This document shows positions 6,936 through 55,002 of a stretch of 64,000 nt of DNA, piece after piece. The notes beneath the pieces were generated by a model, which saw only the letters and a program-made list of their open reading frames with translations, had not been told where the DNA came from and searched no databases. Position 1 is the stretch's first letter. Each line of letters begins with the position of its first letter. This DNA is from Escherichia coli (GTDB taxonomy: Bacteria > Pseudomonadota > Gammaproteobacteria > Enterobacterales > Enterobacteriaceae), in assembly GCF_016903815.1 (NCBI RefSeq), contig NZ_CP069972.1. One strand, given 5' to 3'. The position numbers and the translations under genes were made by a program.

Positions 6936-7112
6936 CGTTAACGTTTAACTTCGTAGGCTAACGTTGCCACAAGCACTGTGTTTCCCTGCTGGAGCCGGAG
7001 TCCGCAAAGCGAATCCCTCACCATCCAGACAAAACACAGAATCGTCACACAGATGACGATTAACATCATTAAAAACGTTCGCTGTGGCATCATAGCCCCT
7101 CCATTGCCTTAC

Positions 7113-7206
7113 GGCGGTTATCGGGCTACTATAATGTTGTCTAGGCATTACAGTAGAGCCCTTGGTTGATTGATAAAAAAATCTCCAGGGGCTTTCTGCT
7201 GTATAC
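7113..7206. repeat. 85-bp direct repeat copy 1 with internal imperfect palindrome
   Basis: CGGGCTACTATAATG...CATTACAGTAGAGCCC TTGGTTGATTGA...CTCCAGGGGCTTTCTGCTGTATA; near-identical to 7421-7500. Confidence 0.6.
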
Positions 7207-7420
7207 CGTCCACAAAACGCTTTCGGCATACAGCCTCAAGCGCCCGCAGCTATTCTAACGACTTTCGTATCGGTAACAATCCTTTTAACCAGCCCCACAC
7301 ATCTTTCGGACATGGTGAGTACAAAAGGCTGCGCTCTCGAACATTTGACATTGAAAATGATTCAGGTGACAGCCTGAATGTAGCAGGAGTCCCCGTCCTT
7401 CTGGCATAGAAGATGTCAAC

Positions 7421-13449: not shown

Positions 13450-13482
13450 GGCCGCGCCGGATTCTGGCGCGGCCTTTTTTTT
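13450..13482 (+). terminator. Intrinsic terminator between convergent trbC and nikB
   Basis: 9-bp stem GGCCGCGCC/GGCGCGGCC followed by T8. Confidence 0.6.
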
Positions 13483-16180: not shown

Positions 16181-16190
16181 CGGAGAATCC

Positions 16191-16523
16191 TCAACCTTCC
16201 ATTAACTGTTTACGCAATGTATTTGTAAGTTCGGTTATGGCAACAAGCACTTCTGCGTATTCCTTGTCACCGGTTCTTTTTCCCTGAACAAACAGATGCT
16301 TCTGCATCCTTCCCAGTCTCATTAACTCCTTCAGAAAAGCATCATCTGTCCGGGAGTTAATTCGCTTATTCAGTGCTGCATTTCGGATGTAAGCAGATAC
16401 AGTAAGTCCGGAATCTTCAGCATTCTTACAGATAGTTTCATCCTCATCCGGTGAGAACCGGACCGCTCTCAGGATCGTCTTTTGCCGTCTTTCACTACCA
16501 CTTCTTTGACGTTTATCACTCAC
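16191..16523 (-). CDS. nikA: oriT-binding relaxosome accessory protein NikA (RHH, 110 aa)
   Basis: GTG start after AAGGAG; 110-aa product VSDKRQRSGSERRQKTILRAVRFSPDEDE... typical RHH Mob accessory protein; precedes nikB. Confidence 0.8.
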   Translation of the reverse strand: MSDKRQRSGSERRQKTILRAVRFSPDEDETICKNAEDSGLTVSAYIRNAALNKRINSRTDDAFLKELMRLGRMQKHLFVQGKRTGDKEYAEVLVAITELTNTLRKQLMEG

Positions 16524-16540
16524 GGTCAGCTCCTTACTGG

Positions 16541-16625
16541 GGTGTCGGGGCGAAGCCCTGACCAGGAGGCAATTGTATAATCGCGCGTGCGCGGTTATAC
16601 AATTGCACATCCTGTCCCGTTTTTC
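16541..16625 (+). other. oriT: Origin of transfer (oriT) with predicted nick site
   Basis: Perfect 10-bp inverted repeat AATTGTATAA/TTATACAATT (16571-16604) followed 10 bp later by ATCCTG^T (nick predicted 16614/16615) resembling the IncP nic motif; leading genes then point toward this site. Confidence 0.65.
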
Positions 16626-17176: not shown

Positions 17177-18025
17177 TCAGACTCGTGGCGGCAATGCACC
17201 AGGATAATGCCGTGCAATAATATCATTCAGTTTTTCAACAAGGTCAGAACGCTTAAAGACAATGTGTACGGTCCCTTTCTGGTAGCCACGCACCGTAAAA
17301 TATTCCCCTTCTAACAGCTTACCGACATTGTCACCGTTCCCGAGAAATTCACCATACTGCGCCCCGATGCTGTTCCTGAAGTCAGGAACGTTGCGCCCCT
17401 CCAGCAGATAAAACGGACGTACCAGGTCATCCAGTGCCTCCCGTCCGCTGCAGTCCAGCGTCACACGCCCGTTACTCCAGCGGTACAGTAGGTTTTCAAT
17501 AATTATTTTCTTACCCAGACGGCAGGGATTATTGGTTCTGTAATCCCATGACAATTTCCGGTAGACATCAATCAGCCCCTGTTCAAACGTCTGCATCTTG
17601 CTGGCATTAAGATGGCGGAATGTTGCCAGTACATTGTCCAGGGTGATTTCAGGACAGGTGTCGCTCATCAGCTGGCTGTTCCACTCATCACGCTGGCATG
17701 AACTCATGAAGGTGTACATGCCCGTATCTGTCATCAGGCGGTCCCAGATTTTCCGGTCGGCAAGACGGGTGATATTCCTTTTCGCTTCTTCCGTCTTATC
17801 CATGCGACGAACGGAATCAGTCACGCAGTCTTCAAACCCGTAAAGAAAAATATCACCTGACGCATCGAGCAGAATCTTGCGCGCTGTCGCCAGGCATTCC
17901 ATCGCCTGCATGAACAGTGCAATACCTTCGTTACGCTGCGCGATGATGCGGTCGATAGCTACAGACGGAATAACATCTGTCGTGCCGGCAGTATTCAGGT
18001 CAGCAGTGGGTAAAGTCTGATTCAT
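17177..18025 (-). CDS. Leading-region protein of unknown function (282 aa), first gene behind repeat copy A
   Basis: ATG at 18025 with SD GGAGA; large hairpin repeat immediately upstream; no recognised motif. Confidence 0.55.
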   Translation of the reverse strand: MNQTLPTADLNTAGTTDVIPSVAIDRIIAQRNEGIALFMQAMECLATARKILLDASGDIFLYGFEDCVTDSVRRMDKTEEAKRNITRLADRKIWDRLMTDTGMYTFMSSCQRDEWNSQLMSDTCPEITLDNVLATFRHLNASKMQTFEQGLIDVYRKLSWDYRTNNPCRLGKKIIIENLLYRWSNGRVTLDCSGREALDDLVRPFYLLEGRNVPDFRNSIGAQYGEFLGNGDNVGKLLEGEYFTVRGYQKGTVHIVFKRSDLVEKLNDIIARHYPGALPPRV

Positions 18026-18075
18026 CACATTGTCTCCTCATCGTCACGACTGCCGGGTCAGCCAGGTCATTTCCC

Positions 18076-18386
18076 GGAGGAGCGAAGCTCCTTCTGCCGT
18101 CCGGGTCTTCGGGGATTTCCCCGCAGTGGACCTTTCCGACGGGGGACGCTCACCACGTCACGGGGCAGTTGTCCGGGGGCAGACGCAAAAGTTTTTGACG
18201 CCTGCGGCAAAAAGTTTTGTGGCTGGTACATCTCTCCCCTGGACGACTGAAACGGGATGTGGTCATGTATGTACCCCCGGAAAGTCCGTCTGCGGAGAAC
18301 AGGCCGCAGTGCGGCGGCAGACAGGCAGAGACAGCTGCGCCATCAGGCGCAGTGGCCTTACACACCGTAAGGTGTGCAGGGAGCGC
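18076..18386 (-). promoter_or_regulatory. Family-1 hairpin repeat, copy A (ssDNA-promoter-like, Frpo/ssi-type)
   Basis: Shares about 300 bp with 21469-21964 and 27812-28310, including inverted arms CCCCGCAGTGGACCTTTCC / GGAAAGTCC(A/G)...GGGG and TTGACGC...GCGGCAAAAAGTTTTGTGG. Confidence 0.6.
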
Positions 18387-18501
18387 CGCATACGGCGCGA
18401 CTGAAGAAAAACGACGGCACAACAATGGCATGTGGTGGTCACTGGCACACCACTCCCGCACAGGTGAAAACAGAGAAAACCGCACGACATTTACAACCAA
18501 A

Positions 18502-19131: not shown

Positions 19132-19329
19132 TCAGTGAGTGATTTTCTTCAGTTCGTCATCGGAAAGTCCGGTAGCCTGCTTAATCTGCTCCGGCGTCAT
19201 CCCCATTTTCTGAAGCTGGCACGCAATAGCCAGGGCTTTTTCAAGCGCTCCTTCCATGCGTCCTTCCATGCGTCCTTCCATCCTGCCTTCCTGGCGACCT
19301 TTTTGCTCAAGACGTTCTGCGATAGTCAT
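19132..19329 (-). CDS. Possible intragenic RpnS-like ORF (in-frame internal start, 65 aa)
   Basis: In-frame ATG at 19329 preceded by GAGGAT at -6 to -11 (CATGAGGATAAACTGATG); product corresponds to the Rpn C-terminal domain. Confidence 0.3.
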   Translation of the reverse strand: MTIAERLEQKGRQEGRMEGRMEGRMEGALEKALAIACQLQKMGMTPEQIKQATGLSDDELKKITH

Positions 19330-20058
19330 CAGTTTATCCTCATGCTGCGGCAGACGCTCAGCCAGCGCCCGCATAAATTCCGGTGATACAGAGTCCCCTG
19401 CGTTAACGATGTAATGAATCAGAACACGCACCTGCTCGTCTGAAATTTCCACCATGACCTGCGGGAGTTTGTCCAGCAGCTCCATCATGTCACGATGGCG
19501 GATATGCTTCATCAGCAGCGTCAGTGCGGCCATCCGGCGATGGTTCATGATTTCATTGTCATCAACGACAGTGATATCAACCAGCGGAAACGGCTTTGTG
19601 TATATTTTAGCCGCAAGTGCCGGATTCTCAAAACAGTCCAGCCAGTTCATGCTGTACGGGTACGGGCTGCGCTCACCGTGATAGAACAGCACCGGAATCA
19701 CCAGTGGCAACGTTTTGTGCTGCTCCAGATGTCTCTGCATCGCCGCCACACTGTAGCGTAACATGCGAAAAGGCATGTACAGATTTTCTGTGCTCTGGTG
19801 CTCGATGAGCGTATAAACATAACCATCTTCACCCCCGGTGGTTTTCACGCTCCAGAGGATATCGCTGGCGTACTGATGCAGGTCCGGCTCAACAAAGGTG
19901 GCGGGTTCCAGCTTCAGCGTGGACAGGTCGCACAACTGCCGGTACTCCGCAGGAAGATGCAGTTCCAGAAAATCCCTGGCAACGTCGGGATTCGCCAGGA
20001 ACGACCGGAACGCGGCATCATGCGGCGTGGGCGTTGTGGTGTTTTTCTTCTTACTCAC
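19132..20058 (-). CDS. Rpn family recombination-promoting nuclease (YhgA-like, PDDEXK), 308 aa
   Basis: YhgA-like N-terminal region (LIEHQS...) and conserved C-terminal domain (IAERLEQKG...TGLSDDELKK); GTG start overlapping the stop of the upstream ORF. Confidence 0.6.
   Translation of the reverse strand: MSKKKNTTTPTPHDAAFRSFLANPDVARDFLELHLPAEYRQLCDLSTLKLEPATFVEPDLHQYASDILWSVKTTGGEDGYVYTLIEHQSTENLYMPFRMLRYSVAAMQRHLEQHKTLPLVIPVLFYHGERSPYPYSMNWLDCFENPALAAKIYTKPFPLVDITVVDDNEIMNHRRMAALTLLMKHIRHRDMMELLDKLPQVMVEISDEQVRVLIHYIVNAGDSVSPEFMRALAERLPQHEDKLMTIAERLEQKGRQEGRMEGRMEGRMEGALEKALAIACQLQKMGMTPEQIKQATGLSDDELKKITH
19249..19284. repeat. 12-bp tandem repeat x3 inside rpn (encodes EGRMEGRMEGRM)
   Basis: TCCTTCCATGCG repeated twice plus variant TCCTTCCATCCT; in frame. 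Confidence 0.6.
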
Positions 20059-21414: not shown

Positions 21415-21468
21415 GAAAACGTCTCCTTCTGCTGAATCAGGTCGCCGGGCCGACCGGTTGCTCCCCCG

Positions 21469-21964
21469 GAGGGGCGAAAGCCCCTTCTGCCGTCCACTTC
21501 TTCGGGGTTTCTCCCCGCAGTGGACCTTTCCGATGGGGCAGCGACTGCCACGGCACGGGGCAGTTGTCCGGGGGCAGACGCAAAAGTTTTTGACGCTTGC
21601 GGCAAAAAGTTTTGTGGCTGGTACATCTCTCCCCTGGACGGCTGAAACGTGTTGTGGCCGCTTCAGCCCCCGGAAAGTCCACAGCGGGGAAACAGGCCGC
21701 AGGGGGGGCGGCGGAAGGGCAGACAACTGCGCCATCAGGCGCAGTTTCCTTACACACCGTCAGGTGTGCAGGGAGCGCAGGTCACGGCGCGACAGAGGCG
21801 GCGCGACCGGAACGGTCGCTGCAAGCCTGGTTTTTCAGACATCGGACCGTAGCGGCAGCCCGAAACCGCGCCAGCGGGTTCGGCGGAGACTGGCGGGTGC
21901 GCCAGCAGCTGCCTGTCGGAGTCGGGCCTGACGACCGGATGCCGCCAGGCAGCCGGGAGCCGAA
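21469..21964 (-). promoter_or_regulatory. Family-1 hairpin repeat, copy B
   Basis: About 500 bp shared with copy C and about 300 bp with copy A; long imperfect inverted repeats. Confidence 0.6.
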
Positions 21965-22146
21965 GGGTGTCCCCGCCCCCGGGAGTCAGAACAACAGAAA
22001 CGACAAAACAGAAAAATGCCTCACACTATGACAGGCAGGAAGGGTAGCGCCGCAGGCGCGGCCCTCCTGTATTTCAGGCAGGCGTAAGCCTGCCAGGGTT
22101 TTCCGGGGGCCTGGCAGGCCATCCCCCCGCCGGAGCGGGGAGTAAA

Positions 22147-22659: not shown

Positions 22660-22992
22660 CATAGTCACATGTTCTGCGACACCGGGCGGTGCCGTGCCTC
22701 CATCTTTGCCGGGCCTGCAGGGATGCAAGGGCGCAAGGGAAGCCGCAGCCCGACGCACACGGCTGGCGGGAGTTGGAGGGTGAGACCGCGAAATCTGAGC
22801 GGGTGAACGACCGGAAAATCACGGCAGACGGGAAGGAGGGACCGGGTGACCGCAGCGGTTCATCTTACCTTGCATCCCGCCCGCAGAAGCCCGGCTACGA
22901 TGGAGGCACGGCACAGCCCGCACACGACACGGCGGCCACATAACTGAAAACCCACAAGGCCATGCCCCGCATGGCCGGGTAAAAGCGGAGCC
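22660..22992 (-). promoter_or_regulatory. Family-2 hairpin repeat, copy 1 (upstream of ardA)
   Basis: About 330 bp nearly identical to 31955-32286; about 45-nt inverted arms (GTGCCGTGCCTCCATC...GATGGAGGCACGGCAC) separated by about 150 nt. Confidence 0.6.
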
Positions 22993-27742: not shown

Positions 27743-27811
27743 AAGAACCTCCTGACTGAAAGATGTGAGATAAACCGGATACCGGCGACGGGACGTTCAT
27801 GTGCCCCTTCA

Positions 27812-28310
27812 GAGGAGCGAAAGCTCCTCCTGCCGTCCACTTCACAGGGGTTTCTCCCCGCAGTGGACCTTTCCGATGGGGGCCCGTTTACCGCCTCACG
27901 GGGCAGCTGTCCGGGGGCGGACGCAAAATTTTTTGCCGGGTTCATGGCTAAAAATTTTGTGGCCGGTGCATCTCACCCTGGACAGATGGAACGGGAGGGG
28001 GTTACGTCTGCCCCCCGGAAAGTCCACAGCGGGGAAACAGGCCGCAGGGGGGGCGGCAGGAGGGAGGACTGCTGCGCCATCAGGCGCAGTTTCCTCACAC
28101 ACCGTCAGGTGTGCAGGGAGCGCAGGTCACGGCGCGACAGGGGCGGCGCGACCGGAACGGTCGCTGCAAGCCCGGGTTTTCACGCATCGGACCGTAGCGG
28201 CAGCCCGAAACCGCGCCAGCGGGTTCGGCGGAGACTGGCGGGTGCGCCAGCAGCTGCCCGTCGGAGTCGGGCCTGACGACCGGATGCCGCCAGGCAGCCG
28301 GGAGCCGAAG
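27812..28310 (-). promoter_or_regulatory. Family-1 hairpin repeat, copy C (upstream of ssb)
   Basis: Near-identical to copy B over about 500 bp; homology ends at about 28310, right where the group II intron begins. Confidence 0.6.
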
Positions 28311-28316
28311 TGGGCG

Positions 28317-30650
28317 GTGCGACAGGAAGTCGCTTAACGTATTGTTTTACATTGATAAAACCAGCTATCCCATTAGCTGTAGCCTACCGGGACAGGCGTT
28401 GCCGGCAACGGCGGGGTCTGAAGCTCCCGGGACAACGAGAGCCGGGCGTCAGCCCGGGTAATGCCCCGTGAGGGGCTTTACCTTGCTGCAAGCATCATGC
28501 GGCAGGAGAGCAAGGCTGGTCAGAAGGGTTAACACATGTGAACTGTTGATAAACACCGTTATCGGCAACAGGCCAAAGATGCTGACAGGCCTGAACCAAA
28601 AGGTACGGGGTCCGGTTGCTACCTCGCGCACAGGGAGCACATGGGCGCAGAGACCCCCGGTGAAGAGACAGAACCCGCCCTGACCCTCTGTATGTTAAGC
28701 GGAACCTGGTAAACCCGTATCGCTGCCTCACAGGCAGGTGAACCGCAAGGAACACTGTTAGCGGTGCGGGCATAGGAGGACGGAAAAAGCGAATGCCCGG
28801 CTGTAATAACCGGGATACGGGGCAGGTTCCCCGACGCGAAAGCGGGCAGACTTCCGTCTGGTCTTTAATTGCATGAAAAGCTGTAAAGCAGTCAAAAGGA
28901 TATCAGCGAGATGAATACACACATCAGTGTGTCCACGATACCCCACCCGACAGGCTGGCACACCATAAACTGGAAAGCATGCCATGCCCGGGTGCGAAAG
29001 CTACAGTTACGGATTGCAAAGGCAACCCGACAGCAACAATGGCGGCAGGTCAGAGAACTACAGCGCATCCTCACCCGCTCATTCTCCGGCAAAGCCGTGG
29101 CTGTCAGGCGTGTAACTGAAAATACCGGTAAAAGGACACCCGGTATTGACGGAAAAATATGGCACACACCGAAGGAGAAATGGGAAGGAATATGCAGCCT
29201 GAATCTGTGTGGTTACAGGCCACAGCCACTACGGCGAATACATATCCCAAAATCAAACGGCAAAACGCGACCGCTGGGCATACCCACAATGAGGGACCGG
29301 GCCATGCAGGCACTGTGGCTGCTGGCTCTGGAACCCGTATCCGAGACCACTGCTGACCATAACAGCTATGGTTTCAGACCAATGCGCAGCACGCATGACG
29401 CCATTGAGTCCATTTTTCTGCGGATGAGCCAGAAAGTATCGCCCAAATGGATACTGGAGGGCGATATTAAAGGGTGCTTCGATAACATCAGCCATGACTG
29501 GCTGCTTTCCCATATTCCGATGGACAGGAGACTGCTTAAAAAATGGTTGAAAGCAGGTTACATGGAAAGAGGCGTGTTTAACCATACGAACAGCGGGACA
29601 CCGCAGGGAGGCATCATATCCCCTGTTCTCGCCAACATGGCTCTGGACGGACTGGAGAAGGAACTGATGCAAACGTTCAGGAAAAGTGGTTATCACAGTG
29701 CAAAGCACCAGGTGAATTATGTGAGATATGCTGATGATTTCATCTGTTCAGGCAGCTCCCGTGAATTGCTGGAAAATGAGGTCAGACCACTGATTGCAGC
29801 TTTCATGCGCGAACGAGGGCTGGAACTGTCGGAAGAAAAAACAGCGATCACACATATAGATAAAGGCTTCGACTTTTTAGGGCAGAACGTCAGGAAGTAC
29901 AACGGTAAAATGCTGATTAAACCGTCGAAGAAAAACCTGAAGAACTTCCTCTGTAAAGTCAGAGAAATAATTAAACGCAATCCGACGCTCCCGGCATGGA
30001 AACTGATAGGCCAGCTAAACCCGGTGATCCGGGGATGGGCTACCTATCACCGACACGTCGTGGCGAAAGAAACATTTAATTATGTCGACACCCAAATCTG
30101 GCGAGCTATATGGCGATGGTGTGTAAGACGGCATCCCCGGAAAGGATTGCGGTGGATCGCCGGACGATACTTCTCCTTTGAAGGCAGGCGCTGGATCTTT
30201 AAAGCCATAACCCCGGAAGGGAAAATTCTGACACTCTTCCGGGCAATGGAAACACCGATAAAGCGCCATATAAAAATCAAAGGCGAAGCAACACCATACA
30301 CCCCCGGAATGGAAATCTACTTTGAACGTCGTCTGGATCTAATCTGGAAAGGCAAATCAAAGAAGATGAAGACAGTAGTTCAACTCTGGAAGAGGCAGGG
30401 GAAACACTGTCCGCAGTGCGGACAACTCATAACCAACCAGACCGGATGGAATATACATCACCGGATCAGGAAAGTTATGGGCGGCAGTGACGAACTGACC
30501 AATCTCGAGTTGTTACATCCGAACTGCCACCGACAGTTACACAGCAGGGAAGCCGGTGCTCACCGAAAGCACTTATAAAGGCTTGAGCGGAGTGCGGGGA
30601 AACTCGCACGCTCCGTTCTTAGGGGGCGGCGGCGCAGCAATGTGCCGCTG
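28317..30650 (+). mobile_element. Group II intron (about 2.3 kb) with intron-encoded RT/maturase/HNH protein
   Basis: 5' GTGCG at 28317; about 590 nt of upstream structured RNA; ORF in domain IV; domain V hairpin GAGCGGAGTGCGGGGAAACTCGCACGCTCCGTTC at 30585-30618; 3' end approximate. Confidence 0.75.
28911..30578 (+). CDS. Group II intron-encoded protein: reverse transcriptase, maturase, HNH endonuclease (555 aa)
   Basis: RT motifs (GIDG, YADD) and C-terminal Cys/His HNH segment (CPQCGQ...HHRIRKVMGGSD...HPNCH). Confidence 0.85.
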   Translation: MNTHISVSTIPHPTGWHTINWKACHARVRKLQLRIAKATRQQQWRQVRELQRILTRSFSGKAVAVRRVTENTGKRTPGIDGKIWHTPKEKWEGICSLNLCGYRPQPLRRIHIPKSNGKTRPLGIPTMRDRAMQALWLLALEPVSETTADHNSYGFRPMRSTHDAIESIFLRMSQKVSPKWILEGDIKGCFDNISHDWLLSHIPMDRRLLKKWLKAGYMERGVFNHTNSGTPQGGIISPVLANMALDGLEKELMQTFRKSGYHSAKHQVNYVRYADDFICSGSSRELLENEVRPLIAAFMRERGLELSEEKTAITHIDKGFDFLGQNVRKYNGKMLIKPSKKNLKNFLCKVREIIKRNPTLPAWKLIGQLNPVIRGWATYHRHVVAKETFNYVDTQIWRAIWRWCVRRHPRKGLRWIAGRYFSFEGRRWIFKAITPEGKILTLFRAMETPIKRHIKIKGEATPYTPGMEIYFERRLDLIWKGKSKKMKTVVQLWKRQGKHCPQCGQLITNQTGWNIHHRIRKVMGGSDELTNLELLHPNCHRQLHSREAGAHRKHL

Positions 30651-30856
30651 CTACCCGACCAATAAAAGACAGCCAGAAACGGTGACAGTGTCACGGAATA
30701 TCACACCTGTTCCCTGCATACAGCCATACACTACCTTCTGACCGGAAAGCCGGGCCGGCAGCGCCGCAGGCGCTGCACCCCGCGTTTCCGGCAGGCGTCA
30801 GCCTGCCAGGGGTTTTCGCGCGGGCTGACAGGCGGCCTCCACCGCCTGCCCCTGTA

Positions 30857-31048
30857 TCACCTGTTTCTGCTGCCCTGAAGGATGTAGTGACCGCCCAGGA
30901 AAACCGCCTGCTGATTCGCCACAAAATCGCAGATTTCATCAACAATCTGCGCGGTGGTGAGCGGTTTCTGCCCCATTTCACGACGCCGCGCATTAATCAC
31001 GGCCCTGTAATTACGCAGAATTTCGCGGGTTTCTGTGCTGATATTCAT
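30857..31048 (-). CDS. Small hypothetical leading-region protein (63 aa)
   Basis: ATG overlaps stop of upstream ORF (ATGA); SD GGAGA. Confidence 0.4.
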   Translation of the reverse strand: MNISTETREILRNYRAVINARRREMGQKPLTTAQIVDEICDFVANQQAVFLGGHYILQGSRNR

Positions 31049-31467
31049 GACATCGTCTCCCCGTCCAGCGCCTGCAACACAACGTCCATTGCTTCGAGTT
31101 CCTCCCTGACGAATGCGTCACCGTCGCCCCCGTTCTCACTCCCGACGGCATACAGGCGCTTCATTTCACTACCTGCCAGCGCCATCACTTTTTCCAGCAT
31201 CACCGCCGGGACTGTCACATGACGGCTGGCGCGCTTTTCTTCCATCAGTTCATTGACAATATCGGAAACAACTCTGTCACATGCGCCATATACAAAAGCA
31301 TCGTCCAGCCGCTGCATGACGGTTTCCAGCTCATCGTCTGACAGGTTCCAGTCCTGGGCTATGTGACGCACATCCCCACGGGTCAGCACCACGGCAAAAA
31401 CGCATTCACTGTCCGGCACGTCTGTATCCAGTACATCGCGGATGATTTCTTTAACAGTACAGTACAT
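31045..31467 (-). CDS. Hypothetical leading-region protein (140 aa), paralog of 33170-33604
   Basis: SD AAAGGAGA; shares the LSDxEixTVxxRLxD segment and overall pattern with the 144-aa ORF at 33170-33604. Confidence 0.5.
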   Translation of the reverse strand: MYCTVKEIIRDVLDTDVPDSECVFAVVLTRGDVRHIAQDWNLSDDELETVMQRLDDAFVYGACDRVVSDIVNELMEEKRASRHVTVPAVMLEKVMALAGSEMKRLYAVGSENGGDGDAFVREELEAMDVVLQALDGETMS

Positions 31468-31513: not shown

Positions 31514-31939
31514 TCAGTCAAGTGCCGCGTAAATCGCGTTGCATTCGGGGTGAAATTCGATGTGGCTCCACAACTGCGCATCACGCATCCTGTACAGGTG
31601 TGTCAACCCTGCATCCCCGCTGTCGTGGTACAGCCACAACTGGCGGTTAATCACAAGGGAGGTAAGGATGATGCCTGCGGCATCAGCGCTCACGGTACGG
31701 TCAAACCAGTTTGCACCGTTCACCATGTGGAAACGGTCGCCATCCGGCATCATGTAACCGCCACCGTCCGGCAGGCGGATGAAGTGCCAGAATCCGCCTT
31801 CATATTCCGGCATCATTTTTTTCGCCAGCGCGTATACAGACGCTTCGGCATACAGAAAATCCAGGCCAAACAGGTAAGGCAGAAAAGACAGACGGTCGCA
31901 CTCTTCAACGTTCAGAGTGACAGGTTTCGCATATTGCAT
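31514..31939 (-). CDS. KlcA/ArdB-like antirestriction protein (141 aa)
   Basis: Size and sequence character of the KlcA/ArdB family; sits behind the same hairpin repeat family that precedes ardA; SD GGAGGA. Confidence 0.55.
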
Positions 31940-31954: not shown

Positions 31955-32286
31955 TGTTCACATATTCCGCGACACCGGGCGGTGCCGTGCCTCCATCTTT
32001 GCCGGGCCTGCAGGGTTGCAAGGGCGCAAGGGAAGCCGCAGCCTGACGCGCACGGCTGACGGGAGTTGAAGGGTGAGACCGCGAAATCTGAGCGGGTGAA
32101 CGACCGGAAAATCACGGCAGACGGGAAGGAGGGACCGGGTGACCGCAGCGGTTCACCTTACCTTGCAACCCGCCCGCAGAAGCCCGGCTACGATGGAGGC
32201 ACGGCACAGCCCGCACACGGCGCTGAGGCCACATAACTGAAAACCCACAAGGCCATGCCCCGCATGGCCGGGTAAAGCGGAGCCTG
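31955..32286 (-). promoter_or_regulatory. Family-2 hairpin repeat, copy 2 (upstream of klcA-like gene)
   Basis: Near-identical to 22660-22992. Confidence 0.6.
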
Positions 32287-32354: not shown

Positions 32355-33125
32355 TCATTTCCGGATTTTCGCCAGTGCATCCGCCATGCTGCGGATTTCA
32401 GTCCGGGCTTCCAGGACCACCTCCCGCAGAATATCCCGGTCAAACCAGCGACGGGACGGTTCATCCGGTATACGCAGCACATCGCAGGCCAGCCCACTGG
32501 ACAGGATATGCTCCACACACTCACTGACCAGATACATTTCCACCGACGAAAAACGAGCGCCCCGGTTCAGGATGGCATCGAGCACCACGGGCAGGTTTTC
32601 GTCGTCTTCATCGAGCCAGCAGGGGTGATCGCTTTCCTTCACAACCAGGCGAAAGCGGCGCGTCTGGCGGGTCAGCAACGTCTGACCGGTTGTGGTCAGC
32701 GCCGCCCTGATACGCCGCGCATCTTCTGCCACCCGGCAACTGACACTGCGTACCGCATCGTGCACCGCATCAAGAACTGCCCTGATTTCGTCTTCGGTCA
32801 GCCATTCTCCGGCATACGGGAAAGACACCTGCGTTCCGTCTGCCGGAAGTACCGGCAGCGACTGCCACTGACTGCCGGACAGAACAAGTTCCGCCCCGGT
32901 TCCGGTCAGTTTCTGAATGGCAGAGGCCAGGAGCGGCGGCAGTACGCCGCCGTGACGGTTGATAAGTAACGTCGCCAGCCGGGGCGCATCCAGCAGAACA
33001 TAAATGCTGATCCAGCCCGGATACTTCGGGTTACGCTGGTCAACATCCGTCTCTTCCGGCCAGCCCTGCGCCAGCAGCAGGTTACGGGCGTGGCGACAAA
33101 TCAGTGCATTCAGCGTTTCGTTCAT
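32355..33125 (-). CDS. Hypothetical leading-region protein (256 aa)
   Basis: ATG at 33125 with GGGAGA upstream; no recognised domain. Confidence 0.45.
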
Positions 33126-33169: not shown

Positions 33170-33604
33170 TCAGTCGTTTTCGCGTGTGTTGTTTTTCAGC
33201 AGGGCGCGGGCCTGATTAACCACCGCCTGTCGGCGGGTGACGCATTCCGGGACGGCGAGGCCGTTATCACGGGCGGCCCACTCACGTTTCCACAGTGCCT
33301 GTTCGGCGGTCTGAATCAGGGACGCCAGCAGTTCAGCAGGGACGGTCACCTGGCGGTTTTCTCTCACGTTATTGATGATCTCCATCGCCGCACCGGAAGA
33401 AATACCGGATTCAGTCCGCTGGTCTTCCGGGATGTCCTCCAGGCGCGCCAGGACAGTCCTGATTTCATGATCGGACAGGGAAATATCCATTCCGTCAGCG
33501 AGGGCCTGAATTTCTTCCGGGGACCAGATAACCAGCATCAGCGGCGTATCTCCCGGATACTTTGCTGCCAGCGCCCGGCAGAGCGTTTCGCATGTTCCGT
33601 ACAT
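33170..33604 (-). CDS. Hypothetical leading-region protein (144 aa), paralog of 31045-31467
   Basis: SD AAGGAGA; similar to the 140-aa ORF. Confidence 0.5.
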   Translation of the reverse strand: MYGTCETLCRALAAKYPGDTPLMLVIWSPEEIQALADGMDISLSDHEIRTVLARLEDIPEDQRTESGISSGAAMEIINNVRENRQVTVPAELLASLIQTAEQALWKREWAARDNGLAVPECVTRRQAVVNQARALLKNNTREND

Positions 33605-33617: not shown

Positions 33618-33839
33618 TCAATCTTTGAAGCAGGAATCCAGTTCCAGAATTTCGGTATACGCTTCCATGAACAGGCGATTGGCGCGATACAGCGTCTGGC
33701 GTGTCAGGCGTTCAACAAGCACATCGGAATCAAAGCGACAGCGATGCTCCATATCGTTCAGCCTGGCCCGAAGGTCACACATGGTGTTGGCCACCTCCGC
33801 CACGTCGGCGCGAAGTTTTTCGTGTCCGGCATAGTTCAT
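33618..33839 (-). CDS. Small hypothetical protein (73 aa) downstream of the methyltransferase
   Basis: ATG directly after the methyltransferase stop (TAAATG); SD CCGGAGG. Confidence 0.4.
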   Translation of the reverse strand: MNYAGHEKLRADVAEVANTMCDLRARLNDMEHRCRFDSDVLVERLTRQTLYRANRLFMEAYTEILELDSCFKD

Positions 33840-34523
33840 TTACGCAGCCTCCGGTTCAAACCAGTTATCATTCGCGGCCCCCTGCTGCATGGCCCGTTGC
33901 ACGGCGGTCAGTCGTTGCTGTCCGGCACGGTGATACTGTTCAAGCAGCTCGATACCGATATACCGGCGTCCGGACTGAAGAGCGGCCACGCAGGTTGATC
34001 CGCTGCCTGCAAACGGGTCCAGCACAATCGCGTTCGGATGTGTGAAGCTCTCAATCAGTGGTTGCAGGCTGGTAACGGGCTTTTCCGTCGGGTGATGGCG
34101 ATTGCCCGAATATTTCCAGCCCAGCACGTCCGGCAGCGGGTTTTGTGGCAGACGTGGACGGCCTTTTGCCAGGATGTAGGCACATTCGTGGCGATAGCCC
34201 ACATATGCGGCCTTCGATGTGTAGTTTTTGGTGAAGACCAGGTGACCAACAACGCTGAATCCCGCATTTTTCCAGGCAGACATAAAACGATCGACGCGAT
34301 TCCAGCCATAGAAGCTCACCATTAACGCGTCTTTTTTGAGTACGCGGTACATCTCATTACAGGCCGGTTGCAGCCATTCATCGGTTTTATCGCCGGCAAT
34401 GGTACGCCCCTGACGGTCACGAAAACCGACGAGGTACGGCGGGTCGGTGAGGATGAAATCAATGGCGTTATCAGGGATACGGGCCATAACATCGATGCAG
34501 TTACCGAGGACAAAACGGGACAT
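33840..34523 (-). CDS. Orphan DNA methyltransferase, DPPY motif (227 aa)
   Basis: Catalytic motif IV DPPY (FILTDPPYL) and AdoMet motif (LDPFAGSGST); no adjacent restriction endonuclease gene. Confidence 0.75.
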   Translation of the reverse strand: MSRFVLGNCIDVMARIPDNAIDFILTDPPYLVGFRDRQGRTIAGDKTDEWLQPACNEMYRVLKKDALMVSFYGWNRVDRFMSAWKNAGFSVVGHLVFTKNYTSKAAYVGYRHECAYILAKGRPRLPQNPLPDVLGWKYSGNRHHPTEKPVTSLQPLIESFTHPNAIVLDPFAGSGSTCVAALQSGRRYIGIELLEQYHRAGQQRLTAVQRAMQQGAANDNWFEPEAA

Positions 34524-34876
34524 ACCAAACTCCTTCTCTTACAGAGGGCACCGGGAGGGCACCCCTGTGGTGCCCGTTCCCCGCTGCCTGTGGGCTGTTC
34601 ACCGCGTCCGGTAACGGGTCAGGCCGACCGTGGAATACCGCAGCCGTCGTCTTTTTGACGGCAAGGCTATGCCGCGAAAGCGGCTTGAAGGGCGTTCATC
34701 AGAAAAGGGCGACGGGCTGGCGTACACTGTCACCGACGCCAGCCGGGAGCGGTAAAAGCGCCCGTCCCGTGCCCGGCCGGACGCGGACACTGACCACAGG
34801 CAGCGTTTATGCCGCGCCGCGTCAGCCGGCGCAGTAAAAAGAGGAGCACGGCGACATCCTTTACCGGAAAAGAAAC

Positions 34877-34900
34877 GGGCGGTTGCCCGCCCGTCTCCGT
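34877..34900 (-). terminator. Intrinsic terminator after the 308-aa ORF
   Basis: Minus-strand hairpin ACGGGCGGGCAACCGCCCGT followed by a U-rich tract. Confidence 0.45.
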
Positions 34901-34906
34901 CATACT

Positions 34907-35833
34907 TCATCCGCCATAATGCGCCACATTGTCGATTATCCACGCAGGTCCGGTGACTTCCGGCAGCTCATCATCATCTGTCGGGGAAGACCATTCCAGT
35001 TCCCCCCACAGCACATCAACGAGCTCTCCGCGCTCATACAACTGCCAGCCACAGAAATTGCAGCCCTGTTCGGCGTACCAGTGCTCCAGCGTGCAGCCGA
35101 AACGGCGGCTTAATTCTGCAACAACGTCGCTTTCCGGCTGACACCACGGCGTGTCGAAATCTACCTGAATGAAGTTTTCCCCCTGACTGCTGATATTCAG
35201 GTCATACCCACAAGGCCACTTCACGCCATACCGTTCTGTATACCAGTGATATGCAGAAGGAACACCGTTCAGAACACCGCCGTTAAAGCCATTCACTTCA
35301 ATATCCAGGCGGGTCGGCAAAACCGTCAGCAGGTCAAACGGCATGGTTTTTTCCGGCAGTACGTTGTCACACAGACGGTTCCACCACACCGATACATCCT
35401 CGTTACCCCAGATGTCACACCAGTCACCTCTTTTTGCGGTGAAATGCACAGTGATAGTTTCCCTGACATCATCCGGTAACTCTTCCCAGCGACGCTGTCC
35501 AGTACCGCTCTGCAGCCAGAGTTCATGCAGCATCAGGCAGTTTTGCTCATCCAGCAGTACACCGTTCTGCAGGTGTGTCAGCCAGCGGGTGAACGCGATA
35601 TTTTCCGGTGATACAGCACCACGTCCGGCAGCCGTCACTCCGGGGCACTGCTCAGAGCGGATATTTTCAGTGATCTGCAGAAGTCCGGCACTTCCGGCCA
35701 GAAACAGCTGAATACCTTCATTTGTGGCGCGGCGATAAAGCGGTGTAACTGCACCGCTGGCCAGTCGTTTAATCTCAGCGATCTGTGCCGGTTCACCAGA
35801 AAAATACATACGATTCGAGCACCAGTTTGGCAT
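34907..35833 (-). CDS. Hypothetical leading-region protein (308 aa)
   Basis: ATG at 35833 with SD GGAG 8 nt upstream; Trp/Cys-rich; no recognised domain. Confidence 0.5.
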   Translation of the reverse strand: MPNWCSNRMYFSGEPAQIAEIKRLASGAVTPLYRRATNEGIQLFLAGSAGLLQITENIRSEQCPGVTAAGRGAVSPENIAFTRWLTHLQNGVLLDEQNCLMLHELWLQSGTGQRRWEELPDDVRETITVHFTAKRGDWCDIWGNEDVSVWWNRLCDNVLPEKTMPFDLLTVLPTRLDIEVNGFNGGVLNGVPSAYHWYTERYGVKWPCGYDLNISSQGENFIQVDFDTPWCQPESDVVAELSRRFGCTLEHWYAEQGCNFCGWQLYERGELVDVLWGELEWSSPTDDDELPEVTGPAWIIDNVAHYGG

Positions 35834-36156
35834 GGGAATTCTCCTCTCACATGCGGCCTCCATCAGGCCGTGCCGCACCTGTTACCGGGCGACCGCATAC
35901 GAATGCAGGTGCGGCCCCGAAGCCGCAGCGCGTGGAGGAGGAACGACGAAACGTGACCGGGTGAGGAGGCCGGCGACAGCGACACACTTGCATCGGATGC
36001 AGCCCGGTTAACGTGCCGGCACGGCCTGGGTAACCAGGTATTTTGTCCACAGAACCGTGCACAAAATGCTGTGGATAAGCTGGACACAGCAGCCCACAGC
36101 AGGCATACAGCCACACACTCAGAGAATTGAGCGTTTTTTAGTCACAACAATGACAT

Positions 36157-36227: not shown

Positions 36228-36476
36228 ATGATCCGCATTGAAATTCTTTTCGACCGCCAGAGCACAAAAAACCTCAAATCAGGCACACTTCAGGCGCTAC
36301 AGAATGAAATCGAACAACGTCTGAAACCACACTACCCGGAAATCTGGCTGCGTATAGACCAGGGCAGCGCCCCGTCTGTATCTGTCACAGGAGCCCGCAA
36401 CGACAAGGATAAAGAACGTATCCTGTCTCTGCTGGAAGAAATCTGGCAGGACGACAGCTGGCTGCCTGCAGCATGA
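36228..36476 (+). CDS. impC: ImpC (82 aa), first gene of the impCAB operon
   Basis: ATG at 36228 after AAGGGAG; small protein preceding umuD-like and umuC-like genes. Confidence 0.75.
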   Translation: MIRIEILFDRQSTKNLKSGTLQALQNEIEQRLKPHYPEIWLRIDQGSAPSVSVTGARNDKDKERILSLLEEIWQDDSWLPAA

Positions 36477-36910
36477 GTACCGTTTATCACCGTCCGGCTG
36501 ACCCTTCAGGCGATGACAGTTACGTGCGACCGTTGTTTGCCGATCGTTGCCAGGCCGGTTTTCCTTCGCCTGCCACTGATTATGCTGAGCAGGAACTGGA
36601 TCTGAACAGCTATTGCATCAGCAGACCTGCAGCCACCTTCTTTCTGCGCGCCAGCGGTGAATCGATGAACCAGGCTGGCGTGCAGAATGGTGATCTGCTG
36701 GTAGTGGACAGGGCCGAAAAACCACAACACGGGGACATCGTTATCGCTGAGATCGACGGTGAGTTCACCGTCAAACGACTGCTGTTGCGCCCACGCCCGG
36801 CACTGGAGCCGGTTTCAGACAGCCCGGAGTTCCGCACACTGTATCCGGAAAACATCTGTATTTTTGGTGTTGTCACTCACGTGATACACAGGACGCGGGA
36901 GTTACGCTGA
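36473..36910 (+). CDS. impA: ImpA, UmuD-like S24 peptidase (145 aa)
   Basis: LexA/UmuD-type Ser-Lys dyad context (ASGESM ... K); ATGA overlap with impC stop. Confidence 0.85.
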   Translation: MSTVYHRPADPSGDDSYVRPLFADRCQAGFPSPATDYAEQELDLNSYCISRPAATFFLRASGESMNQAGVQNGDLLVVDRAEKPQHGDIVIAEIDGEFTVKRLLLRPRPALEPVSDSPEFRTLYPENICIFGVVTHVIHRTRELR

Positions 36911-38181
36911 TGTTTGCACTGGCTGATATCAACAGTTTCTACGCCTCATGTGAAAAAGTTTTCCGCCCGGACCTTCGCAACGAACCGGTCATCGTACTCA
37001 GCAATAACGATGGCTGTGTGATCGCGCGCAGCCCGGAGGCAAAAGCCCTTGGCATCAGAATGGGGCAGCCCTGGTTTCAGGTGAGACAAATGCGCCTGGA
37101 GAAGAAAATACATGTATTTTCCAGCAATTATGCGCTGTACCACAGCATGAGCCAACGGGTTATGGCTGTTCTGGAGTCGCTTTCTCCCGCAGTTGAGCCC
37201 TACTCAATTGATGAAATGTTCATTGATTTGCGGGGGATAAATCATTGCATCTCTCCGGAGATTTTTGGTCATCAGCTCAGGGAACAGGTAAAGAGCTGGA
37301 CAGGACTCACCATGGGGGTGGGCATTGCGCCTACAAAAACGCTGGCTAAAAGTGCCCAGTGGGCAACAAAGCAATGGCCACAGTTTTCCGGTGTGGTCGC
37401 GCTGACGGCAGAAAACCGTAATCGGATCTTGAAGCTACTGGGGTTGCAGCCAGTTGGTGAGGTCTGGGGAGTAGGACGCAGACTGACGGAAAAGCTGAAT
37501 GCGCTGGGTATTAACACAGCACTGCAGCTGGCGCAGGCTAACACGGCATTCATCCGGAAAAACTTCAGCGTCATTCTTGAGCGTACGGTACGCGAACTCA
37601 ACGGCGAGTCCTGCATATCTCTGGAAGAAGCACCGCCGGCAAAACAGCAGATTGTCTGTAGTCGCAGTTTTGGTGAACGAATCACAGACAAAGATGCCAT
37701 GCACCAGGCTGTTGTTCAGTATGCAGAGCGGGCCGCAGAGAAACTACGTGGGGAGCGTCAGTATTGCCGGCAGGTGACGACATTTGTACGGACATCCCCC
37801 TTTGCAGTAAAAGAACCCTGTTACAGCAATGCCGCTGTGGAAAAGCTTCCATTGCCCACACAGGACAGCCGGGACATTATTGCCGCAGCATGCAGAGCGT
37901 TAAACCATGTCTGGCGTGAAGGGTACCGCTATATGAAGGCAGGTGTCATGCTGGCTGATTTCACACCATCGGGTATAGCGCAGCCGGGATTATTTGATGA
38001 AATCCAGCCCCGTAAAAACAGTGAAAAGTTAATGAAAACACTCGATGAACTGAACCAGTCGGGAAAAGGGAAAGTGTGGTTTGCGGGGCGAGGAACCGCC
38101 CCTGAATGGCAAATGAAACGGGAAATGCTTTCTCCTGCGTATACCACCAGATGGACAGATTTGCCAGTAGCCCAGTTATGA
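36910..38181 (+). CDS. impB: ImpB, UmuC-like Y-family translesion polymerase (423 aa)
   Basis: N-terminal MFALADINSFYASCE typical of UmuC/DinB family; overlaps impA stop. Confidence 0.85.
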   Translation: MFALADINSFYASCEKVFRPDLRNEPVIVLSNNDGCVIARSPEAKALGIRMGQPWFQVRQMRLEKKIHVFSSNYALYHSMSQRVMAVLESLSPAVEPYSIDEMFIDLRGINHCISPEIFGHQLREQVKSWTGLTMGVGIAPTKTLAKSAQWATKQWPQFSGVVALTAENRNRILKLLGLQPVGEVWGVGRRLTEKLNALGINTALQLAQANTAFIRKNFSVILERTVRELNGESCISLEEAPPAKQQIVCSRSFGERITDKDAMHQAVVQYAERAAEKLRGERQYCRQVTTFVRTSPFAVKEPCYSNAAVEKLPLPTQDSRDIIAAACRALNHVWREGYRYMKAGVMLADFTPSGIAQPGLFDEIQPRKNSEKLMKTLDELNQSGKGKVWFAGRGTAPEWQMKREMLSPAYTTRWTDLPVAQL

Positions 38182-47905: not shown

Positions 47906-47982
47906 AAGCTGTCGCTTATGGCGGAGCGATTGTGCCGTGTATTTATACACTGCACAGGGTTGAATCTCTGGTACGGTTTCAT
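47893..47982 (-). CDS. repY: Leader peptide RepY (29 aa)
   Basis: ATG at 47982 to TGA at 47893 encodes MKPYQRFNPVQCINTRHNRSAISDSLWQV; stop overlaps repZ start region. Confidence 0.65.
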   Translation of the reverse strand: MKPYQRFNPVQCINTRHNRSAISDSLWQV

Positions 47983-47994
47983 TATACTTTACCC

Positions 47995-48070
47995 GTATTC
48001 TGTGAGGCCCCCACTATCTTTCGTCGTTCCGCCAAGTTCGTAAGAAAGATAGTGGGGGTTTTCCTTTTAT
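47995..48070 (+). ncRNA. inc: Inc antisense RNA (about 70 nt) of the repZ replicon
   Basis: Promoter TTGAAT-17-TATACT (47960-47988); 15-bp stem CCCCCACTATCTTTC/GAAAGATAGTGGGGG with loop containing CGCCAA, then T-run; antisense to repZ leader. Confidence 0.6.
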
Positions 48071-49058
48071 GGCTTCCGGAACATCTTCAGTCTTCTGACT
48101 TACTGCCCGTACATGCCATCTCTCCTGAATGCCTTATGGCGCATTCTGCCGTCCGGCTTTCGCCGCTTTGCTCCACAGAGTGCCACCCTCTGCACAGCTA
48201 ATAACAGCCGAAATATACCCGCTTTACGTTAATTTGAAAAGCATTACAACGATCTCTTCTCTTCCAGTGCCTCCTCACTGATACCTCTAATAAGTTAATC
48301 TTGACCTGCGTCAAAAAAATAAAATCTATTTTTAAAAGCAGATTTTTCTGCTTTAGATCTTTCTTTTGGATTAAAAGATCGACTTTTGTCCTACTCACGA
48401 TCATTTATCTTACAACCGATCTACCTAACAGAATAATATTCTGTTTTAATGCAATTAAACGATCTAAATAACCTTTAAAAAATCATTTTGTAGATCATTC
48501 GATCGTAAATAGAATAATTCTTAGATGATAAAACCATTTGTTACACAACCCGCCAATTGTGTAACAACAGCCTCTACAAGAGCATATTTGTTCATATGTT
48601 CGTCAGAACTGCGGATTGTCTGGACGAGGGTCAGACACCGTTTCGTGCATATGGACCAGCATGTTCGAACGCCACAAAGCAGAAGCATCATGCCTGGATC
48701 GCTTCGGCGCGGAGCGTTAAGTTTTGACGCTTTTTTGTATGTTTTTTAAGCTGTTAGTTGACTCGGTGCGTTATACTAAGTACCCTTTACTGGTCACAGG
48801 CAAAACTGTGATCGGGCGTAGGAACCCGCGTAGTCATCGTCGGCGCAGAAGTTAATTTCTTCATTTGGCGTCGTTTTTTGCCATACCATAAAGACAGGAA
48901 CTTGTATTTCTTGTCGTCATCTATGGTAGCTCAGGCGGGGCAGGCATTAGCCTGGCCGGTTTCCGATGACGCCGGTATTCCTACCCCCGTCTGGGCTATC
49001 ACCAATGAGCGTAGGAACTCGGTGATAGCGTTTTTAGTTGTCATCGGAGACCGTTGCT

Positions 49059-54552: not shown

Positions 54553-54989
54553 TGGGATGGCTGGTCATGGCCGTCGGCCTGACCATTCTGATTATCACTG
54601 GTAGCTACCAGAATCAGAAGATGTCTGAAACCACAAACGCCCAGCAATATGCAAGTGCGTCTGTATGGGCAAGTCAGATACTAATGATTGCTAACAGAAT
54701 CAATGATATCAGATACGTATCAGGCCAGCAGGACGGAGTAATTTCCTCAGATAAACTGGCTCTCCCTGTCACTCCGGACTCCCGAATTAAACATCAGTTA
54801 CAACAGGGGCGTCTGTGGGTATGGATGCCTGAACAACCAGGACTTGTTGAAACTTTGCGTTCAAAAAGTCGTGGTTCTGCACTAATAGGGATCTTCCAAA
54901 ACGGGCAACTCACCTGGCTATCAGGAACTGCAACCGGTCTGACACCCCCGGCAGGCATTACTGCTGGTTCTGTCGTCTACGTTAACTAA
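54552..54989 (+). CDS. pilM: PilM (145 aa)
   Basis: N-terminal TM anchor; overlaps pilL stop. Confidence 0.65.
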   Translation: MGWLVMAVGLTILIITGSYQNQKMSETTNAQQYASASVWASQILMIANRINDIRYVSGQQDGVISSDKLALPVTPDSRIKHQLQQGRLWVWMPEQPGLVETLRSKSRGSALIGIFQNGQLTWLSGTATGLTPPAGITAGSVVYVN

Positions 54990-55002
54990 TCTGGATATAT
55001 TC

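Follow-up and report, generated by a model that had tools for sequence, protein, structure and literature searches.

A predicted M.EcoGIX-type orphan DNA methyltransferase and its candidate single-stranded DNA promoter in the leading region of an Escherichia coli IncI-complex plasmid

M.EcoGIX and M.BceJIII are beta-class DNA methyltransferases that produce N6-methyladenine (m6A) promiscuously, in the context SAY and on one strand only, typically modifying about 40% of the susceptible sites (PMC7736820). Their substrate in vitro is single-stranded DNA and not double-stranded DNA, and mutation of the DPPY motif to APPA abolishes the effect (PMC7736820). The methylase activity co-purifies with DNA polymerase I (PolI); this observation and work with fusion proteins are the basis of the link to PolI (PMC7736820). 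M.EcoGIX is encoded by the IncI1 plasmid pESBL-EA11 of E. coli O104:H4 at positions 54782-55465 of NC_018659, a locus to which Yamaichi et al. give this name in their table of pESBL genes (PMC4288162). M.BceJIII, from the Burkholderia cenocepacia plasmid pBCA072, is likened to the enzyme studied here through its published description as beta-class, specific for single-stranded DNA, SAY m6A-forming and PolI-associated (PMC7736820). During vegetative growth with the native pESBL, the SAY sites of both plasmid and host are unmodified (PMC7736820). When M.EcoGIX is expressed constitutively from artificial constructs, plasmids that depend on PolI (ColE1 and p15A replicons) are found at a lower copy number; M.EcoGIX also suppresses the growth of phage M13 (PMC7736820).

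Deletion of M.EcoGIX lowers pESBL transfer up to about 1000-fold into recipients with EcoGIII or EcoRI and about 9-fold into a Klebsiella isolate, and leaves plasmid stability, host growth and transfer to a non-restricting recipient unchanged (PMC4288162). Inverting oriT has an effect of about the same size as the knockout, meaning that protection needs the native orientation of oriT and that synthesis of M.EcoGIX has to take place in the recipient, with the entering strand as its source (PMC7736820). CTGCAG and GAATTC, for which the mating tests showed protection, are not strict SAY sites, and the published mechanism is incomplete in this respect.

By RNA-seq of donor-free transconjugants, leading-region genes organised in six operons were found to be induced, 15 min after mating, by as much as about 500-fold, the induction of M.EcoGIX being transient and restricted to early conjugation (PMC12672017). 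Each of the six operons is preceded by a hairpin-forming single-stranded DNA (ssDNA) promoter, with start sites mapped by 5'RACE. These promoters fall into three classes: the Frpo-like ssi1-3 make up class 1, ardA and klcA are each preceded by a class 2 promoter and M.EcoGIX by a class 3 promoter; ssDNA promoters can prime DNA synthesis as well (PMC12672017). In a survey of plasmid leading regions, orphan methylases ranked with the most enriched functions and were always oriented for transcription from the transferred strand (T-strand) (PMC11541004). Single-strand specificity, SAY context, the PolI link, restriction protection, the induction seen in transconjugants and the start site mapped by 5'RACE all come from experiments on the pESBL orthologue of the methylase described below.

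Outside plasmids, the closest functional analogue is the enzyme DpnA (M.DpnIIB) of Streptococcus pneumoniae, which methylates entering single-stranded DNA and shields it from restriction ahead of second-strand synthesis. DpnA differs in being part of a complete restriction-modification cassette, DpnII, in being specific for GATC and in serving natural transformation instead of conjugation. The larger enzymes CcrM, which regulates the cell cycle, and M.RsrI, which is paired with a cognate nuclease, act on double-stranded DNA at GANTC or GAATTC. Within the leading region itself, ArdA and KlcA/ArdB share with the methylase the same island, early expression from ssDNA promoters and the same purpose, namely to escape restriction in the recipient. 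Their mode of action is different: the proteins themselves inhibit restriction enzymes, ArdA as a DNA mimic, whereas the methylase modifies DNA.

The DNA analysed here is a stretch of 64 kb (the window), which its sequence assigns to an IncI-complex conjugative plasmid. The closest relatives of this plasmid are typed IncI1/B/O or IncK2/Z, MOBP and MPF_I, and its full size would be roughly 90-100 kb. Our evidence on the methylase of the window concerns its identity, motifs, synteny and strand orientation, the conserved structured element that precedes it and the lack of any partner nuclease.

The methylase is encoded on the minus strand at 33840..34523 by an open reading frame (ORF) of 227 amino acids, the length of M.EcoGIX, with an ATG start. 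A Shine-Dalgarno sequence AAGGAG, read from the sequence, is located 6 nt before the ATG (34530..34535, minus strand). A first-pass annotation, made from the letters of the DNA alone, had reported a DPPY motif and an AdoMet-binding motif in this 227-residue protein. The ORF and both motifs were recovered, motif IV (DPPY) at residues 27-30 and motif I (FAGSG) at residues 171-175, together with matches to two profile libraries. The Pfam family PF01555 (N6_N4_Mtase) matches residues 21-201 over profile positions 1-219 of 221, with an E-value of 1.8e-40 and 139.7 bits for a cut-off of 26.7. The NCBIfam model PRK13699 'DNA methyltransferase' (NF010253) covers residues 1-227 with 500 bits for a cut-off of 244. 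Such scores are far beyond chance: the methylase is a genuine gene and a chance ORF is excluded.

The best sequence matches in the PDB were CcrM (6pbd, 1.4e-15) and M.RsrI (1eg2, 2.2e-14). The order of the motifs is permuted, with DPPY N-terminal and FAGSG C-terminal, and they align with the DPPY and FFGVG of CcrM. CcrM and M.RsrI have the same order (DPPY first, FxGxG last) and belong to the same fold family. A small beta-class enzyme of the 'DpnA' type (PDB 5hek) matches residues 141-206 with an E-value of 5e-12, the similarity being limited to the AdoMet-binding half. By every feature that can be tested on sequence, the protein is an intact beta-class N6-adenine DNA methyltransferase of the M.EcoGIX / PRK13699 family.

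Compared with CcrM and M.RsrI, the window methylase is 90-140 residues shorter and has a much smaller segment between its two conserved halves; CcrM runs about 100 residues past the point where the window methylase ends (residue 227). This small size fits the absence of a dedicated target-recognition domain, which would in turn explain a relaxed specificity. The CcrM equivalog model (NCBIfam NF050803) was failed by the methylase, with 84.5 bits for a cut-off of 830, and its alignment was good only over residues 139-214.

These differences bear on the possibility, offered as one of two alternatives by the first-pass annotation, that the enzyme is an epigenetic regulator of the Dam/CcrM type. 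In vegetatively growing cells, such an enzyme would methylate the double-stranded DNA of plasmid or host at a defined motif and thereby control gene expression or replication. The family membership common to CcrM and the methylase agrees with this possibility, as does the missing nuclease partner (see below), and the orthologue does lower the copy number of PolI-dependent plasmids when expressed from constitutive constructs (PMC7736820). However, besides its low score with the CcrM model, the methylase is devoid of about 40 residues of the CcrM central region and of the C-terminal extension of about 100 residues. Single-stranded DNA is the sole in vitro substrate of the orthologue, and the native plasmid and its host are without SAY methylation (PMC7736820). 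Its expression is transient, early and tied to the single-stranded state (PMC12672017), and no promoter-like site for double-stranded DNA was predicted upstream of the window methylase. We therefore regard a regulatory role of this kind as very improbable and do not retain that alternative.

The window methylase was then compared with its plasmid-borne homologs. It aligns without gaps to M.EcoGIX of pESBL, 212 of the 227 residues (93%) being identical, DPPY and FAGSG included. Homologs are also found in R64, where the protein is called YfbB, and in the F plasmid, whose copy shares 211 of 227 residues (93%) with that of the window and belongs to a collinear segment of 5.3 kb with 92.8% identity. 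At the DNA level the window and pESBL genes are 89% identical, and 55 of their 75 nucleotide differences fall at third codon positions. The resulting dN/dS of 0.087 (dS 0.46, dN 0.040) argues for strong purifying selection on the methylase gene and suggests that the alleles are old and functional. The window allele would be expected to behave like M.EcoGIX. Its 15 amino-acid substitutions relative to M.EcoGIX are concentrated in residues 75-127 (11 substitutions), so that its context preference could differ from that of M.EcoGIX.

The family is very common. Among 72,556 plasmid records, at least 5000 encode a protein at least 90% identical to the methylase. The hosts listed for these matches are mostly Escherichia, Klebsiella, Salmonella and Shigella. 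Of the plasmids themselves, about 80% are typed as conjugative. A module formed by the upstream element, the methylase and the two genes that follow it (Hp9 and the DUF1380 gene, described below) occurs in at least 5000 plasmids, whose types are IncI, IncK, IncB/O and IncF.

The position of the methylase relative to the origin of transfer was deduced from the surrounding genes. According to the annotation of related plasmids, nikB (13481-16180, minus strand) and nikA (16191-16523, minus strand) adjoin oriT. The oriT core lies on the plus strand at 16570..16615 and is made of a 17-bp inverted repeat followed by the motif CATCCTG|T (16609-16615), which we take to be a nick region of the IncP/IncI1 type, its consensus presumably placing the nick at about 16615. 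Since this motif is on the plus strand, the plus strand would be the one transferred, entering 5' to 3' in the direction of the methylase and also serving as the template of the methylase gene. The methylase is about 17.9 kb from the nick, within a leading region collinear with those of pESBL and F. All the classic genes of the leading region are on the minus strand and read toward oriT: DUF4942, Rpn-family, ardA, psiA, psiB, parB-like, ssb, klcA, methylase and DUF1281. This arrangement, anchored by nikB, nikA and oriT at 13481-16615, bears out the minus-strand leading operon in which the first-pass annotation had placed the gene. The DUF4942 protein (17177-18025) was considered as a possible second methylase; it has no sequence match in the PDB and no methylase motif was seen in it.

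On the far side, the island ends at the plus-strand interval 36228..38181, where a divergently transcribed operon holds impC (DinI-like; Pfam DinI 8.2e-18) and the umuDC-like impA-impB, the latter identified from the annotation of relatives. Anti-defence islands of leading regions usually have their far boundary at an operon of this type (PMC11541004). The order ParA-like, ImpB/A/C, Hp8, M.EcoGIX, Hp9, Hp10, Hp11, KlcA ... ssb, psiB, psiA, ardA, oriT is common to the window and pESBL, for which the published table gives ParA-like, ImpB, ImpA, ImpC, Hp8, M.EcoGIX, Hp9, Hp10, Hp11/YchA, KlcA/ArdB, Hp12 and Hp13 (PMC4288162). The one departure from collinearity with pESBL is a group II intron of 2.3 kb inserted in the window at 28317-30659. 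Being located further along the leading region, it should leave the methylase unit unaffected.

A partner nuclease was searched for in the vicinity of the methylase and throughout the window. With Pfam, no nuclease domain was detected in the eight flanking ORFs and no restriction enzyme in six further ORFs of the leading region. Nor is any restriction endonuclease annotated in five related plasmids that together cover the 64-kb window. The only nuclease-family genes of the window are the relaxase and a gene for an Rpn/YhgA-like nuclease of the PD-(D/E)XK type (19132-20046), which forms a separate unit at 14 kb from the methylase and is absent from the annotation of the F plasmid leading region. 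Within the 64-kb window the methylase is an orphan, with no cognate restriction endonuclease. The first-pass annotation had said as much, describing the adjacent genes as small, of unknown function and none of them endonuclease-like. The latter description is essentially right: downstream of the methylase come a 73-residue ORF, a DUF1380 protein and a YchA-like ORF of 256 residues, then klcA, and a DUF1281 gene lies upstream.

The gene could still descend from a type II restriction-modification system whose endonuclease was lost or is encoded elsewhere on the plasmid or the chromosome. Many members of the N6_N4_Mtase family are indeed methylases of such systems, the window represents 64 kb out of the roughly 90-100 kb of the plasmid, and a nuclease of the PD-(D/E)XK type is encoded 14 kb away. 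But the Rpn gene, as said, belongs to another unit and is missing from the F leading-region annotation, the close relatives reveal no endonuclease over the extent of the window, and the nuclease-free neighbourhood of DUF1281, the 73-residue ORF, DUF1380 and YchA-like genes is kept across IncI and IncF plasmids. In the at least 5000 plasmids carrying the module, the latter is always located in the leading region and always partnerless. Moreover, the relaxed SAY preference on single-stranded DNA is unlike that of a cognate methylase (PMC7736820). Such a remnant thus seems to us extremely improbable.

The DNA preceding the methylase is the second distinctive part of the locus. A conserved non-coding element of 383 nt, forming a branched hairpin in the transferred strand, occupies positions 34524..34906 of the plus strand, from the stop codon of the DUF1281 gene to the start codon of the methylase, with a core at about 34547-34814. 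Folded as T-strand DNA, it reached -109.3 kcal/mol (z=-6.87), and none of 100 dinucleotide shuffles was as good. As controls, a stretch of 384 nt from the methylase coding sequence gave z=-0.12 and a published class 2 element gave z=-4.15.

We also scanned the T-strand from oriT to impA in windows of 300 nt, using DNA energy parameters and the cut-off of -75 kcal/mol taken from PMC12672017. Six loci below the cut-off matched the published classes. Three were ssi-type repeats at about 18.1, 21.5 and 27.9 kb, and two were class 2 repeats at 22.7 and 32.0 kb; both the class 1 and the class 2 repeat families were recovered independently by a direct-repeat search. The sixth locus, at 34.5-34.9 kb and directly upstream of the methylase, reached -90.9 kcal/mol. 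The cut-off was also passed by one additional scan window (about 30.55-30.85 kb), where the inserted group II intron has its 3' end.

Conservation of the element exceeds that of the gene behind it. Against pESBL, 424 of 433 positions are identical (98%), compared with 89% for the adjoining methylase gene. Among the best 5000 plasmid matches, the element is at least 95% identical in 4991, whereas the methylase gene is mostly 90-95% identical. This difference points to a constraint acting on the DNA itself. In an alignment of nine sequences, a consensus branched hairpin was obtained at about 34547-34814 with three compensatory pairs; as variation was low, this is a weak test of covariation, and the support it gives to the hairpin is suggestive, not decisive. 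In an IncF plasmid of Klebsiella, parM takes the place of the DUF1281 gene and the element, the methylase, the 73-residue ORF and the DUF1380 gene are all kept, so that the element belongs to the methylase unit.

On the minus strand, no sigma-70-type duplex promoter was predicted between 31.9 and 36.3 kb, which agrees with a methylase gene that is silent in double-stranded DNA, and no convincing -35/-10 boxes were identified by eye within the element. From these results, the element at 34524-34906 is a well-supported candidate for the 'class 3' ssDNA promoter of the methylase operon, its placement in that class following the wording 'hairpin located in 5' of M.EcoGIX' (PMC12672017) and our repetition of the folding screen rather than published coordinates.

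RefSeq annotates in this interval a hypothetical ORF (34599..34904, minus strand). We examined it as a possible partner gene and rejected it, as single-base indels shift its frame between plasmids. Its N-terminal halves are unrelated from one plasmid to another although the DNA is about 97% identical, and it overlaps the terminator-like hairpin of the DUF1281 gene. It is most likely spurious, the DNA most likely being that of the non-coding ssDNA promoter.

The limits of the transcription unit could be proposed on both sides. Upstream, the DUF1281 (Api92-like) protein is encoded on the minus strand at 34907..35833 (Pfam DUF1281 1.1e-46, DUF1281_C 7.4e-15). Directly after its stop codon, the fold and the sequence reveal a GC-rich hairpin (34875-34894) followed by a T-run, which looks like an intrinsic terminator and would divide the DUF1281 gene from the methylase unit; this hairpin, visible in the fold, was not listed by a consensus terminator scan.

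Downstream, the methylase is followed by the ORF of 73 residues (Hp9 of pESBL; 33618..33839, minus strand), which belongs to no Pfam family. The start codon of Hp9 abuts the stop codon of the methylase (TAAATG), so that the two are probably co-translated, and their adjacency is kept in IncF, IncI and IncK plasmids. Next in the unit are the DUF1380 protein (Hp10 of pESBL; 33170..33604, minus strand; Pfam DUF1380 1.2e-54) and the YchA-like ORF of 256 residues (32355..33125, minus strand), which has no Pfam family and corresponds to Hp11 in the pESBL table (PMC4288162). The YchA-like ORF is the final gene ahead of the next ssDNA promoter, a class 2 repeat upstream of klcA (31958..32257, plus strand; T-strand fold z=-4.15; repeat family D1 in our search, classes as in PMC12672017). 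A copy of this repeat, 96% identical, is found at 22665-22964 upstream of ardA. The methylase unit ends downstream at the klcA-proximal copy. Beyond it begins the next operon of the shared anti-defence island, with the KlcA/ArdB anti-restriction protein (31514..31939, minus strand; Pfam Antirestrict 2.4e-26).

Taken with the published work, these data are best explained if the methylase is a plasmid entry-protection enzyme of the M.EcoGIX type acting by the published mechanism, a reading to which we give a probability of about 0.9. During conjugation, the plus strand of the window would enter the recipient 5' end first from the oriT nick at about 16615. Some 18 kb later, the element at 34524-34906 would arrive and fold into a large hairpin mimicking a double-stranded promoter, from which the host RNA polymerase would transcribe the methylase together with the next three genes, with the incoming strand as template. 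The methylase would then mark adenines on the still single-stranded plasmid with a very relaxed sequence preference (SAY context). Once the complementary strand is synthesised, many restriction sites would be hemimethylated and would resist the restriction enzymes of the recipient. In duplex DNA the hairpin promoter would be gone and the methylase gene silent, leaving the established plasmid without such methylation. The other alternative of the first-pass annotation, a protective methylase for incoming plasmid DNA, is therefore the one upheld, by the deletion phenotype of the 93%-identical M.EcoGIX (up to about 1000-fold) and by its dependence on oriT orientation.

A different emphasis would make DNA processing through PolI the primary function. 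The enzyme would mark or slow the entering strand and so coordinate complementary synthesis, or would hit ssDNA phages and competing PolI-dependent plasmids, restriction evasion being a side effect. The orthologue co-purifies with PolI, depresses ColE1 and p15A copy number and suppresses M13 (PMC7736820), and ssDNA promoters can prime DNA synthesis (PMC12672017), all of which would suit such a function. The phenotype of the native deletion is nevertheless a loss of restriction protection, with transfer to non-restricting recipients, stability and growth unaffected (PMC4288162), and the methylase shares its island with ArdA, KlcA and PsiB. As the primary function we find it very improbable; as a secondary effect of an entry-protection enzyme, a PolI-linked role is possible.

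Entry protection could also involve more than the methylase. The hairpin element, the methylase, the 73-residue ORF, the DUF1380 protein and the YchA-like protein might form one functional unit, in which the last three would be cofactors targeting or timing the methylase; or else the cluster of substitutions in residues 75-127 might alter its context preference. We hold this extension to be doubtful. If there were such a unit, the three co-transcribed proteins could be the factor lost on purification of M.EcoGIX, and synthesis of the complementary strand would also be primed by the hairpin, making it the starting point of PolI-coupled methylation.

The system of the window is already known, and we saw no departure from the published one: the enzyme, its single-strand specificity, its expression at the time of entry and its protective role were all published between 2012 and 2025. 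Its prior characterisation and its abundance, the specificity for single-stranded DNA and the reading of the flanking 'intergenic' DNA as a single-strand promoter were points absent from the first-pass annotation. By helping IncI and IncF resistance plasmids to cross restriction barriers, a methylase of this type bears on the spread of antibiotic resistance. For annotation, the 'hypothetical protein' upstream of the gene is most likely a non-coding ssDNA promoter, more conserved than the gene that it drives. A second hairpin, with z=-4.3, was observed upstream of the DUF1281 gene at 35864-36028.

The methylase gene (33840-34523, minus strand), which belongs to the M.EcoGIX family of single-stranded DNA methyltransferases, forms one unit with the three uncharacterised genes that follow it on the same strand: a 73-aa ORF (33618-33839), a DUF1380 gene (33170-33604) and a YchA-like gene (32355-33125), in that order. 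The ATG of the 73-aa ORF abuts the methylase stop codon (TAAATG), and the order methylase/73-aa ORF/DUF1380 is kept in those IncI, IncK and IncF plasmids that were examined. A second, more weakly matching DUF1380 paralog is located after klcA at 31045-31467.

Directly upstream of the methylase, RefSeq draws a "hypothetical protein" at 34599-34904 (minus strand) in thousands of plasmids. This ORF is entirely contained in the hairpin element (34524-34906) and is probably not a gene: single-base indels leave the translated N-terminal halves of its alleles unrelated, even though the DNA is about 97% identical apart from them. At 34875-34894 on the minus strand, starting 13 nt past the stop codon of the DUF1281 gene (34907-35833, minus strand), a GC-rich hairpin with an 8-bp stem and a 4-nt loop is followed by TTCTTTT. 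In fold and in sequence the hairpin resembles an intrinsic terminator; it was missing from the output of the consensus terminator scan.

Two repeat families of the window correspond to the single-stranded DNA promoters described for the IncI1 plasmid pESBL. Class 1, the Frpo-like ssi elements, is present in three copies (18073-18404, 21443-21965 and 27786-28310). Class 2 comprises two 300-nt copies that are 96% identical (22665-22964 and 31958-32257), placed directly upstream of ardA and klcA. Folding calculations indicated very stable T-strand structures, that is, structures on the transferred strand, for all the copies of both classes.

The intergenic region between the divergent DUF1281 gene and impC (35864-36028) harbours a long imperfect inverted repeat with 27-nt arms that are 78% complementary, owing to which its T-strand fold reaches z=-4.3. 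When the T-strand was scanned in 300-nt windows, this region attained only -68.6 kcal/mol, short of the -75 kcal/mol cut-off that defines the single-stranded promoters. The repeat might act as a weaker single-strand promoter for DUF1281, or as a site through which the imp operon is regulated.

The 3' end of a complete group II intron (28317-30659, plus strand), inserted in the leading region, passed this cut-off when the T-strand was scanned. The intron carries an ltrA ORF coding for a 555-aa reverse transcriptase/maturase (28911-30578, plus strand), and its D1-D4 (28361-28510) and domain V/VI (30583-30659) segments were both detected by Rfam. It is flanked by the Hp13 ORF, named as in the pESBL gene table, on one side and by the class 1 ssi copy that precedes ssb on the other. 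The transferred strand carries the intron in sense orientation, opposite to that of every leading-region gene. pESBL and p86 do not contain the intron found in the window, but several IncI1 plasmids have it at the identical site.

The first sizeable gene past oriT to reach the recipient encodes a DUF4942 protein (17177-18025, minus strand). The sequence of this protein matched none of the solved structures, and inspection of the sequence itself revealed no methylase motif. The leading region also encodes a recombination-promoting nuclease of the Rpn family (YhgA-like, Transposase_31, PD-(D/E)XK; 19132-20046, minus strand), whose gene is oriented like the anti-defence genes.

Elsewhere in the window, Rfam detected an AgrB antisense RNA (6376-6463, plus strand), which in relatives adjoins the DinQ-like toxin gene dqlB, and a sok antitoxin RNA with a Hok/Gef gene (7088-7245, minus strand). 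It also detected the repZ regulatory pseudoknot (47918-48066, minus strand) and a C4-type antisense RNA (48919-49006, plus strand) with the replicon on one side and traA on the other.
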